From: a virus
Lineage: Duplodnaviria > Heunggongvirae > Uroviricota > Caudoviricetes
Reading direction: 5' to 3' (one strand)
DNA length: 35,527 bases
Virus record (IMG/VR): IMGVR_UViG_2654587540_000003
Part shown: piece after piece, positions 4,691-5,127 of the stretch
How the letters are laid out: each line of letters begins with the position of its first letter
How positions within the stretch are numbered: the first letter of the stretch is position 1
Program-made: the position numbers and the translations under genes
Notes under the pieces: model-generated
Databases searched by the model: none
What the model was told of the DNA's origin: nothing
What the model saw: the letters and a program-made list of their open reading frames with translations, nothing else

Positions 4691-4739
4691 TTTGCTGCTC
4701 CTCATCATATCGACCCTGCAAGGTCGGTTGGTTTCTCCA

Positions 4740-4827
4740 CAAAACAGAGAAGAACACCTGCGGTGGCTGCCGCCCGGATGGATTGGGTTATGAGCCCGTC
4801 GTCCGGTGATGCTCTTCTCTGTTTTGT
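4740..4827 (-). promoter_or_regulatory. Long stem-loop (15-bp perfect inverted repeat ACAAAACAGAGAAGA / TCTTCTCTGTTTTGT, 58-nt loop) in the leader of the delayed-early operon; candidate cis-regulatory RNA or sRNA
   Basis: Perfect 15-bp inverted repeat at 4740-4754 and 4813-4827, sitting between a terminator-like hairpin and the ribosome-binding site of the YfdP-like gene. Confidence 0.3.
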
Positions 4828-4871
4828 AAAAAGGACGGTACCAGCCGGAAGCAATGGTACAAGCTGGTACC
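4828..4871 (-). terminator. Putative tL-like intrinsic terminator on the leftward transcript
   Basis: 9-bp perfect stem GGTACCAGC...GCTGGTACC (4838-4871), followed on the minus strand by GTCCTTTTT. Confidence 0.35.
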
Positions 4872-5127
4872 GCCAGGACTACACACAGCATAAAGTTGTG
4901 GTGCCGGGTGCCTCCCGGTGCCTGGCGAAGGTTGCACACCAGGCGGGTGGGTATCCACAGAAGGTCGACTGTCAGCCTCAACCTTAACCCGCGTGCGCTG
5001 AGCCGCATTCACCACAACGCTAAGGATTCTCTCTGGTTGAAAATACTTAGCTGTTATGTGCCTGTCTTTTCACCACTTCAGGCTCGGTGGTATCCTTTTA
5101 AGTCCGTATACATAAAAGGAAAATCAA

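Follow-up and report, generated by a model that had tools for sequence, protein, structure and literature searches.

An STnc100-related structured RNA leader with a terminator and a second conserved element in the early-left operon of an Escherichia coli lambdoid prophage

DicF, encoded by the Qin prophage, is a small RNA (sRNA) that is processed from an early-left-type operon and ends at an intrinsic terminator. Phage lambda produces PreS (LPR1) from its early-left operon; this Hfq-dependent sRNA has its 3′ end at the terminator tL2a (bioRxiv 10.1101/2024.10.31.621285). The STnc100 and PasD RNAs are abundant and Hfq bound in pathogens. They derive from a common origin, and no function has been assigned to either (bioRxiv 10.64898/2026.05.13.724894). 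PasD1 and PasD2 were detected by Northern blotting in EPEC, where their stability depends on Hfq (PMC8550237). A structured early-operon RNA of another kind is the put RNA of the N-less phage HK022, a transcript segment of about 70 nt in which two stem-loops adopt a V shape with a short triplex (PMC9378689).

Here, we describe a leader RNA found in a window of 35,527 nt (the whole stretch of DNA analyzed; IMG/VR record IMGVR_UViG_2654587540_000003) and compare it with these systems. Our analysis adds to the existing picture that the STnc100/PasD family has a conserved pseudoknotted fold, that its members are located at the 5′ ends of PL and PR′ transcripts as well as at internal operon sites, and that SfV-like phages couple the core with both a terminator and another conserved element that has an initiator tRNA-like apex. 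Several lambdoid phages have no N gene and carry terminators before every early-left gene, and the modules of the leader are defined and mutable candidates for a role in the expression of these genes.

Location and extent of the leader

The window represents an SfV/CPS-53-like E. coli lambdoid prophage, in which the leader lies between cI and yfdPQR and is read from the minus strand of the PL (early-left) operon, the leftward gene order being cI, PL, orf33, leader, yfdP, yfdQ (DUF2303), and yfdR. Just left of the cI gene, which encodes a LexA-family repressor (positions 5800-6453), we identified a PL-like sigma-70 promoter (TTGACA-18-TACATT, 5684..5713, minus strand), and no other promoter-like site was found on the minus strand between the repressor gene and yfdP. 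This promoter is presumed to be the source of the transcript that carries all leader modules and yfdP. The whole modular RNA extends from approximately 5120 to 4692 on the minus strand and is followed by yfdP (4328..4690, minus strand; ATG at 4690, end of the stop codon at 4328; protein YfdP according to PGAP) with its Shine-Dalgarno sequence GAGGAG at 4698-4703 on the same strand. The small hairpin CGACC-UUGCAG-GGUCG (4711..4726, minus strand), which precedes this ribosome-binding site, covaried poorly (helix 6 of alignment A1), and relatives carry other hairpins at the same position. Of 5426 complete E. coli genomes, 2786 contain a match to the leader, which was searched as a 436-bp sequence.

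The initial annotation, made from the sequence alone, described positions 4691-5004 as a highly structured non-coding leader upstream of a delayed-early operon. Our results support this description, assign the RNA to the minus strand, and identify the early-left genes as yfdP, yfdQ, and yfdR. The right limit, however, did not hold, as the structured element continues for about 115 nt beyond it, to approximately 5120, and the border bisects the sRNA core. The inverted repeats on which the description had been based were confirmed to exceed chance, with coordinates shifted by 1 to 2 nt: in a search for perfect repeats with loops of ≤100 nt, the longest repeat within 4691-5004 was 15 bp, while 200 shuffles gave a mean of 7.2 and a maximum of 12. 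The 15-bp repeat is situated at 4739-4753 and 4813-4827, 1 nt from where it had been placed, with a loop of 59 nt, and it extends to a continuous 20-bp stem (4808-4827 / 4739-4758) when G-U pairs are included. The other hairpin, reported as perfect over 9 bp at 4838-4871, is real but perfect over 10 bp (4836-4845 / 4863-4872), and the additional GC-rich hairpins mentioned there are present at 4904-4918 and 4921-4943.

At the 5′ side of the leader, an AU-rich hairpin (5093..5120, minus strand), listed as a “putative terminator” by the annotators of SfV, is antisense to the ribosome-binding site of a plus-strand 81-amino-acid (aa) open reading frame (ORF). It is followed by module A (5060..5091, minus strand), a predicted H-type pseudoknot with the sequence ACCAC-CGA-GCCUG-AA-GUGGU-GAAAAGA-CAGGC. 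Module A, which would fold into this pseudoknot, is almost invariant in the phage leaders of E. coli, Salmonella, Klebsiella, and Cronobacter; in the relative L114, stem 1 is formed by UUGGCC/GGCUAA instead. Between CACAUAAC (5053-5060) and the 5′ strand of helix P1 of the core, a variable slot is occupied by a hairpin in the window (5019..5051, minus strand) and by different hairpins in relatives, some of them with T-arm-like loops or with the apex motif of module D described below.

The core domain and the STnc100 family

Ahead of the terminator, the leader contains a pseudoknotted core domain of 124 nt (4895..5018; this and all following core positions on the minus strand) that represents a divergent STnc100 type. 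An Rfam search, proposed as a check in the initial annotation, yielded no match in the window at gathering thresholds, and STnc100 surfaced only in E-value mode: cmscan aligned positions 1-206/206 of the RF02076 model with a score of 42.4 bits, below the gathering threshold of 47 bits, and with E values of 6.7e-8 for a 551-nt region and 4.3e-6 for the whole window, in which this was the sole match. The full-length, if sub-threshold, alignment to a prophage sRNA family matches the earlier alternative proposal of a processed or terminated sRNA. The homologous leaders of ST64B, 118970_sal3, phiES15, and one Klebsiella phage also matched STnc100 with 35-41 bits.

The core consists of P1 (9 bp, 5010-5018 / 4895-4903), a small hairpin (4995-5006), P3 (4988-4993 / 4942-4947), the S2 hairpin (4939-4943 / 4921-4925), and the invariant hairpin CCGGG-AGGCA-CCCGG (P5, 4904-4918), which is stacked on P1. 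It shares with STnc100/PasD the closing helix GGUG/CACC and, directly 5′ of the 3′ strand of this helix, the identical stacked hairpin CACCGGGAGGCACCCGGCACC, the exact motif being located at 4901-4919. The exact motif CACCGGGAGGCACCCGGCAC was found in more than 120 IMG/VR contig stretches among the matches listed. In contrast, the second helix of STnc100 (CCCCC-UGUGCG-GAGGGG, after the AAU junction) is not formed in the window, and cmscan flagged non-canonical pairs at this place; it is replaced by the 3-bp hairpin GCG-GCUCAG-CGC and by the extra helix P3 (CGCGGG / CCCGCC).

Also shared with STnc100/PasD is the pseudoknot, in which the segment after the second helix pairs with the loop of the hairpin before P5; for STnc100 it was found in the present analysis, and the nested structure displayed by cmscan for the model does not contain it. 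In the window, S1a (4979-4985) pairs with S1b (4928-4934) inside the S2 loop, that is, AAGGUUG (4985-4979) with CAACCUU (4934-4928). When cognate and non-cognate strands were compared in a position-restricted permutation test covering 41 distinct loop types, the mean helix was 6.26 for cognate and 4.22 for non-cognate strands, and none of 2000 permutations reached a value as high. A per-sequence shuffle test over the 90-nt search space was uninformative, as helices of 5-6 bp are common there by chance. P1 covaries in 93 unique family elements (among the matches listed) and was 93% paired in alignment A2 (MAFFT, 20 type II cores), in which P3, S2, and the pseudoknot were 49-60% paired, with the subgroups out of register. 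Together, these results establish the relation of the core to the STnc100 family.

In 64 of the 93 elements, a terminator-like hairpin lies ≤130 nt from P1, mostly starting 17-34 nt past it, and 21 carry a sigma-70 promoter placed for transcription to start at P1, so that these copies represent free-standing sRNA genes. Core family members other than the window copy occupy exactly the site of the short PR′ leaders (lambda 6S RNA and StxS of Stx phages): one promoter-driven copy, with the core starting at +1, is located between Q and holin (L132). These leaders belong to the late operon, whereas the window copy belongs to the early-left operon. The position of the window leader is constant across phages. 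Like STnc100/PasD, the window core resides in a lambdoid prophage and is followed by a single-stranded linker of ~20-30 nt and an intrinsic terminator. It differs in lying inside the PL operon behind an ORF and without its own promoter, and the leader contains module A before and module D after the core, neither of which is part of the Rfam model. No promoter directly precedes the core (PL is approximately 650 nt away, beyond orf33), and the RNA could therefore acquire a discrete 5′ end only by processing.

The 5′ part of a related, type III core (GUUGUGGUGAAUGCGCAGGCUGAUGCGCG..., 5588..5673, minus strand) begins approximately 10 nt past the −10 element of PL. In the window it is truncated by the insert of orf33, the 81-aa ORF, and module A. 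The relatives L199 and L211 carry the type III core intact behind this promoter, and the same terminator, module D, and yfdP come next.

Linker, terminator, and module D

The core is followed by the conserved single-stranded linker UUUAUGCUGUGUGUAGUCCU (UGCUGUGUGUAGUC; 4875..4894, minus strand), whose consensus TGCTGTGTGTAGTCTT is kept behind different cores and is found directly behind module A in L179 and L230. The linker is a candidate seed or Hfq-contact segment. MFE folding predicted that GACAGGCACAUAACA (5067-5053) pairs with the linker over a long range, but this pairing was inconsistent in relatives upon inspection by eye and was rejected.

The linker leads to an intrinsic terminator (4828..4874, minus strand), formed by a 13-bp hairpin with wobble pairs (4834-4874; −22.2 kcal/mol, 15-nt loop), the stem of which begins 20 nt past P1, and by a C residue and five U residues (4833-4828), the minus-strand U-tract already noticed in the initial annotation. 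The proposal of a terminator is supported in that the hairpin and its U-tract behave as a conserved intrinsic terminator: the U-run is invariant in 40 homologues, and 8 of the 12 pairs of the stem (helix 1) are changed on both sides across homologues, with 85% of cells paired. Covariance analysis of the homologous regions revealed compensatory changes in the terminator, module D, and P1. For the terminator and module D taken together, 88% of cells were paired, compared with 38-51% when the partners were slid, none of 500 shuffles scored as high, and 23 pairs were changed on both sides. A simple terminator consensus scan did not call the site at 4828..4874. Efficient terminators typically have a short loop of 3-8 nt, and the 15-nt loop found here would fit a leaky terminator.

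Directly after the terminator lies module D (4739..4827, minus strand), a three-way junction composed of the 20-bp basal stem described above, arm 1 (4774-4806) with the apex CGGGCUCAUAACCC at 4785-4798, and arm 2 (4760-4773). The module D pattern was found in 93 unique contexts, and module D precedes the first early-left gene in many contigs of enterobacterial phages; its helices were paired in 94-100% of cells, with pairs changed on both sides, and RNAalifold found the same fold unguided. The long inverted repeat is not part of a terminator or attenuator, as had been assumed, but belongs to a separate, widely conserved three-way junction that always comes after the terminator. Nor does the U-tract overlap the 5′ arm of the long stem, which it merely abuts; the accompanying idea of alternative or extended folds nevertheless has some basis, as RNAalifold pairs GGAGA of the conserved GGAGAAAC behind module D (4731..4738, minus strand) with the U-tract. 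P1, the core pseudoknot, the terminator, and module D are conserved structures.

Possible functions of the leader

On balance, we consider it probable that PL transcripts ending at the terminator yield an STnc100/PasD-like sRNA and that the read-through RNA carries module D as the 5′-untranslated region (UTR) of yfdP. Transcription would proceed from PL (5713-5684) through orf33, after which module A, the slot hairpin, and the core (5018-4895) would fold. About 20 nt past the core, a fraction of the polymerases would stop at the terminator (4874-4828) and free a structured sRNA, whose single-stranded linker and U-tailed terminator would make up the usual Hfq-binding end. Polymerases that read through would enter module D (4827-4739) as the 5′-UTR of the yfdP-yfdQ-yfdR mRNA, and its stem of ~20-25 bp would be a plausible site of RNase III processing or of stabilization, parting the sRNA from the mRNA. 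Our inferences about the leader concern how efficiently transcription terminates, the dependence on Hfq, the targets in trans, and cleavage by RNase III.

Such an sRNA would share with lambda PreS the location within the PL operon, a 3′ end at a tL-type intrinsic terminator, and early-left genes beyond it. However, we saw no sequence or structural similarity to PreS, which at ~68-88 nt has no large 5′ domain with a pseudoknot, and lambda has N for read-through, whereas the window phage has no recognizable N. By analogy, the window sRNA may be regarded as the positional counterpart of PreS as well as of StxS and other short PR′ leaders. DicF resembles it in being an sRNA inside a prophage PL-like operon that ends at an intrinsic terminator but has no 5′ pseudoknotted domain; the similarity of the linker and terminator (4833-4887) to DicF was not significant (cmscan, 15.8 bits, E = 2.1). 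The published sRNA svsR of an NC-SV lambdoid prophage is a different element, located at the 3′ end of cI.

The conservation of the core, with its invariant P5 loop, GGUG/CACC helix, and pseudoknot, exceeds what a base-pairing Hfq sRNA would normally need and hints at another partner. As a tentative possibility, N-less lambdoid phages of the SfV, ST64B, and LLS types may assemble their early-left leaders from a small kit of conserved RNA modules. These would be more than sRNA scaffolds: they would bind host machinery (RNA polymerase, the ribosome, tRNA-directed enzymes or nucleases) and in this way either govern passage through the one or two terminators ahead of every early-left gene or protect from tRNA-targeting defenses. 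The kit would comprise the pseudoknot of module A, pseudoknotted cores of the STnc100 kind in at least three types, the initiator-anticodon-arm hairpin, and the T-arm-like hairpins, and it would represent a second, unrelated RNA-based solution besides HK022 put.

Somewhat unlikely, in our opinion, is a cis-acting antiterminator or attenuator of the put kind, in which module A and/or the core would bind RNA polymerase or sense a signal, letting the polymerase read through 4828-4874 and later terminators and thereby replacing the N protein in N-less phages. No N-like protein was recognized in the window; the 91-aa ORF, whose product the initial annotation wanted included in a termination assay, has no arginine-rich N-like motif and is missing from L199, L211, LLS, and ST64B, close relatives in which the same RNA comes directly after PL, and we rejected it as an antiterminator. 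In these four phages and in phiNP no ORF separates PL from the terminator, in LLS and ST64B the first gene lies beyond two terminators, and for LLS, which lacks N, put-like antitermination was suggested by the authors of its genome paper (PMC12315714). As with put, the leader is a structured early-operon RNA of an N-less lambdoid phage upstream of terminators, and in L199, L211, and LLS it begins, like putL, where transcription from PL starts. The core is always upstream of the terminator, at a fixed short distance in most copies having one, and its conservation resembles that of a protein- or polymerase-binding fold. Nevertheless, homology to put was rejected by sequence, as blastn-short searches with putL and putR from the HK022 record gave only 10-nt chance matches, and the 124-nt core with five helices and a pseudoknot, like the 32-nt pseudoknot of module A, differs in architecture from the two stems of put. 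Moreover, efficient self-antitermination would be incompatible with the accumulation of PasD and STnc100 as discrete, terminated RNAs (PMC8550237). Many copies of the core form free-standing promoter-to-terminator units or tandem arrays, in which a cis antiterminator would have no obvious purpose, and the distance of the window core from PL, with an ORF in between, also argues against this reading.

We further regard it as unlikely that module D and other tRNA-like pieces mimic tRNA, either as a decoy that lures an anticodon nuclease (VapC being a candidate) or some other factor that binds tRNA, or through contacts with the 30S P site or the AUG that control the first early-left gene. All 14 nt of the apex CGGGCUCAUAACCC (4798-4785) are identical to a tRNA-Met gene in each of the 5426 E. 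coli genomes (median of 4 places per genome), the matching part being what we take to be the anticodon stem-loop of the initiator tRNA. A module D-type loop was present in 79 of the 93 pattern contexts; in these, CAU and three G-C pairs never change and the outer stem covaries, although GACGGG and CCCAATCC were fixed by the search pattern and their invariance is thus partly built in. In other phages the same 21-nt apex motif recurs in the slot ahead of P1, T-arm-like hairpins occupy this slot in L004, L006, and L007, and P5 stacked on P1 resembles a T-arm on an acceptor stem. On the other hand, ARAGORN detected 0 tRNA genes in the window, by which a tRNA gene or cloverleaf was rejected for module D, the anticodon stem is kept over three base pairs only, a 14-mer match to any tRNA within 35 kb is not very improbable by itself, and the proposed mimic has no known partner.

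It is very improbable that the locus acts at the level of DNA, for instance as a cruciform, as a site of recombination or a module boundary, or as a MITE-like insertion. Mosaic joints do occur at module edges, homology breaks at ~4875 and ~5090, and CACAAC and GUUGUG are short motifs found repeatedly where units meet. However, G-U pairs are tolerated only in the minus-strand reading, and the fold is far stronger on that strand (MFE z-score for 4692-5127 of −7.83 versus −4.21 for the plus strand). The pseudoknot, the polarity of the U-tract, and the constant orientation to PL and the downstream genes indicate RNA as well, and the copy number per genome tracks the prophage number.

A protein-coding gene or pseudogene at 4705-5015 is hardly credible, even though PGAP places a frameshifted “hypothetical protein” across this segment and a pseudogene entry exists at the equivalent place in UPEC 26-1, PHROG 33599 (phrog_33599) matches a 49-aa ORF with an E value of 3e-17, and long stop-free frames exist. 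Such frames cross the region on both strands, as expected of GC-rich palindromes, the translation has no Pfam match and is Arg- and Cys-rich and junk-like, and the annotated gene is already “frameshifted”. Among 40 homologues, the lengths of module D (89, 90, 91, 92, 110, 111, and 114 nt) showed no frame preference, with all three residues modulo 3 represented (18/16/6). Because these lengths cover all frames and the variation in the stems is compensatory, the region is non-coding, in agreement with the initial view that it holds no convincing coding frame. The PGAP entry and PHROG 33599 are, at this leader, probably artefacts of a structured RNA.

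Organization of the early-left leader

Over 4300-5600, the window, a lambdoid prophage of the SfV / CPS-53 (KpLE1) type, shares 98-99% identity with Shigella phage SfV and Escherichia phage vB_EcoM-720R4. Reading leftward, a LexA-family repressor gene (5800-6453) is followed by an early-left promoter-like sequence (PL; 5713-5684, minus strand), a 91-aa ORF corresponding to SfV orf33 (phrog_3195; 5291-5566, minus strand), a 436-bp gap (4692-5127), and then yfdP (4328-4690, minus strand), yfdQ/DUF2303, and yfdR. Because of this gene order, the stretch initially annotated as a structured noncoding leader (4691-5004) lies within the early-left operon, on the minus strand; one of its limits is the yfdP start, and the other falls inside the core. 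The gap has a match in 2786 of 5426 complete E. coli genomes, and its fold z-score was −7.83 on the minus strand versus −4.21 on the plus strand.

Comparison with the corresponding gaps of ST64B, 118970_sal3, phiES15, phiNP, F1055, LLS, and Klebsiella phages showed that the leader is modular. On the minus strand, a first hairpin (5120-5093) precedes module A (5091-5060), a predicted H-type pseudoknot of 32 nt with an A-rich third loop, which is followed by CACAUAAC and a hairpin in a variable slot (5060-5019), a 124-nt core (5018-4895), a conserved linker, UUUAUGCUGUGUGUAGUCCU (4894-4875), a terminator (4874-4828), and module D (4827-4739); then come GGAGAAAC, a small hairpin, a Shine-Dalgarno sequence, and the yfdP start codon at 4690. 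Module A was almost invariant across leaders of E. coli, Salmonella, Klebsiella, and Cronobacter phages. In phage contig stretches L179 and L230, it leads directly to the linker and terminator, and the core is missing. The slot upstream of P1, the closing helix of the core, is occupied in L004 (~2840-2980), L006, and L007 by hairpins whose loops have canonical T-loop sequences (GUCCG-UUCAAUU-CGGAC and CUGG-UUCGAUU-CCAG) and in L158, L204, L216, and L028 by the apex motif of module D.

The core and its relation to STnc100

In the Rfam comparison envisaged in the initial annotation, there was no hit in the window at gathering thresholds, and in E-value mode the sole hit was a full-model match of 5048-4825 to STnc100 (RF02076) at 42.4 bits, below the cutoff of 47 (E = 6.7 × 10−8 for the region and 4.3 × 10−6 for the whole window). 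Homologous leaders of four other phages matched RF02076 at 35-41 bits. The window core is a divergent STnc100 of a variant subfamily, which differs from the Rfam consensus at the second helix and scores below the Rfam threshold. The feature is real and partly known, the family being named and the window's subfamily lying under the threshold; for modules A and D and the core pseudoknot, we found no description in Rfam or the literature consulted.

The 20-nt motif CACCGGGAGGCACCCGGCAC retrieved the family from more than 120 viral contig stretches at the least. Among the matches listed, which comprised 93 unique elements, the top of P1 (GGUG/CACC) was invariant and its outer pairs covaried (GC in 51 and AT in 32 at pair 6; six pair types at pair 8). 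A terminator-like hairpin lay within 130 nt in 64 of these 93 listed elements, most starting 17-34 nt past P1. In 21 of them, a sigma-70 promoter has a −10 element ending 4-7 nt before P1, and the 5′ end of the RNA would therefore coincide with P1. One promoter-borne copy, from a Klebsiella phage, is a PR′ leader, since it is placed between the Q and holin genes.

Within the core, the segment past the second helix pairs with the loop of the hairpin preceding P5, the invariant hairpin CCGGG-AGGCA-CCCGG (4904-4918) stacked on P1. The strands of this pseudoknot are AAGGUUG (4985-4979) and CAACCUU (4934-4928) in the window and the compensated pair AAGGCUG/CAGCCUU in phiES15. Across 41 distinct loop types, cognate strands gave a helix length of 6.26 versus 4.22 for noncognate ones, a value as high being reached in none of 2000 permutations. 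In a MAFFT alignment of 20 cores of the window's class (type II), whose subgroups were out of register at the inner helices, direct counting found P1 93% and P5 96% paired.

The PL transcript of the window begins with GUUGUGGUGAAUGCGCAGGCUGAUGCGCG (5673 onward), which is the 5′ portion of a third type of STnc100-like core (5588-5673, minus strand, directly past PL). In L199 and L211, this third core is uninterrupted between the same promoter and the same terminator, with module D and yfdP beyond; the window and SfV have it broken past 5588 by orf33, the 81-aa ORF, module A, and the type II core. This places a mosaic joint within an RNA element, and the homology breakpoints at ~4875 and ~5090 are module edges too.

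Several stretches (L021, L028, L029, L030, L041, L049, L065, L072, L075, L087, and L093) carry 2-5 same-strand STnc100-type core motifs, mostly in tandem at ~220-490-nt spacing, many copies with their own terminator. In the rightward operon of ST64B (L003), 5232-5308 (plus strand) matched isrK above threshold, at 64.3 bits. A STnc100 copy has been described 75 nt downstream of stx2 (PMC12370729).

Terminator, module D, and a proposed partial termination

Both initially annotated inverted repeats are present, the long one displaced by 1 nt. Its perfect 15 bp (4739-4753 with 4813-4827), compared with a maximum of 12 and a mean of 7.2 over 200 shuffles, form a continuous 20-bp stem once G-U pairs are counted. 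The second hairpin (4834-4874) has 10 perfect bp, or 13 bp with wobbles, and is followed by C and U5 on the minus strand.

The linker-to-start-codon region of 40 nonredundant homologues was aligned. The proposed structure of the terminator and module D was paired in 88% of cells, versus 38-51% with the partners slid; 23 pairs were changed on both sides, and the observed covariation was reached in none of 500 shuffles. In the terminator, 8 of 12 pairs were changed on both sides and the U-run was invariant. RNAalifold, run without an input structure, folded module D into the same three-way junction, with a 20-bp basal stem, an arm capped by the apex GACGGG-CUCAUAA-CCCAAUCC, and a second arm that varies, and also paired the U-tract with a conserved GGAGA past the module D stem. 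Module D nearly always lies directly past the U-tract, and the gene behind it is the first early-left gene (yfdP, its sb37-type homologue, or an RdgC-like gene). The terminator and small-RNA ideas of the initial annotation were largely right.

PasD, a discrete RNA whose stability depends on Hfq, has a common origin with STnc100 (PMC8550237; bioRxiv 10.64898/2026.05.13.724894), and the early-left operon of lambda yields PreS, an Hfq sRNA with its 3′ end at tL2a (bioRxiv 10.1101/2024.10.31.621285). The simplest account, which we favor as reasonably probable and whose last steps we infer, is that the terminator (4828-4874) would end a fraction of PL transcripts and release an STnc100-like small RNA, with the linker and U-tail as its Hfq-binding end. 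Read-through RNA would carry module D as the yfdP 5′ UTR, its 20-25-bp helix being a plausible RNase III or stabilizing site.

The window also encodes a PF03589-type Q antiterminator (12295-13696 region, plus strand), the Q family reported adjoining PasD; the 607-bp gap that separates it from the DNA methylase and holin genes behind it yielded no STnc100-like RNA.

Alternative readings and neighboring features

A put-like cis antiterminator, on which the LLS genome paper speculated (PMC12315714), would suit relatives that lack N, there being no ORF between PL and their one or two terminators. It is nonetheless unlikely, as the leader has no similarity to putL or putR, its fold is different, and the family's members accumulate in terminated form. 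The role initially proposed for the 91-aa protein was not supported. In ST64B and phiNP (L006), the first ~70 nt past PL contain a conserved element, CAGCGAACAGGCAGGACGCCCACGAAGUAGCCGCC...GGAUGAUUCGCU, with the short motifs CGAAC.GGC and GGAUGA common to HK022 putL and putR; this element, which is absent from the window, may judging by these motifs be a put relative.

Slightly more doubtful is tRNA mimicry by the module D apex. Fourteen nucleotides of the apex are identical to part of a tRNA-Met gene that all E. coli genomes carry (median, 4 places per genome), CAU is invariant among homologues, and relatives contain T-arm-like hairpins; however, ARAGORN finds no tRNA in the window, and the mimic has no known partner. 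An element acting at the DNA level fits the data poorly and is very improbable.

A protein-coding explanation, the least credible, is also a poor fit, even though PGAP places a "frameshifted hypothetical protein" at 4705-5015 (minus strand) and PHROG family 33599 matches a 49-aa ORF in the gap; both are probably spurious ORF calls across structured RNA. We treated the region as noncoding, in agreement with the initial annotation, because stop-free frames run on both strands, module D lengths in the 40 homologues have no mod 3 preference (18/16/6), and variation in the stems is compensatory.

On the opposite strand, an 81-aa ORF (phrog_3311; 5128-5373, plus strand) runs antisense to the PL transcript and shares 83 nt with the 3′ end of the 91-aa ORF. 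The SfV annotation contains the minus-strand ORF only, with no 81-aa counterpart; at the matching position of UPEC 26-1, PGAP annotates the plus-strand ORF without an orf33-like ORF. The repressor gene ends (~5740-5800) in a strong hairpin and U-tract (AAACCGGGGUAUCCCCGGUUUUUUU); a published sRNA, svsR (C0293-like), is located at the cI 3′ end of the lambdoid prophage NC-SV (PMC12803456).
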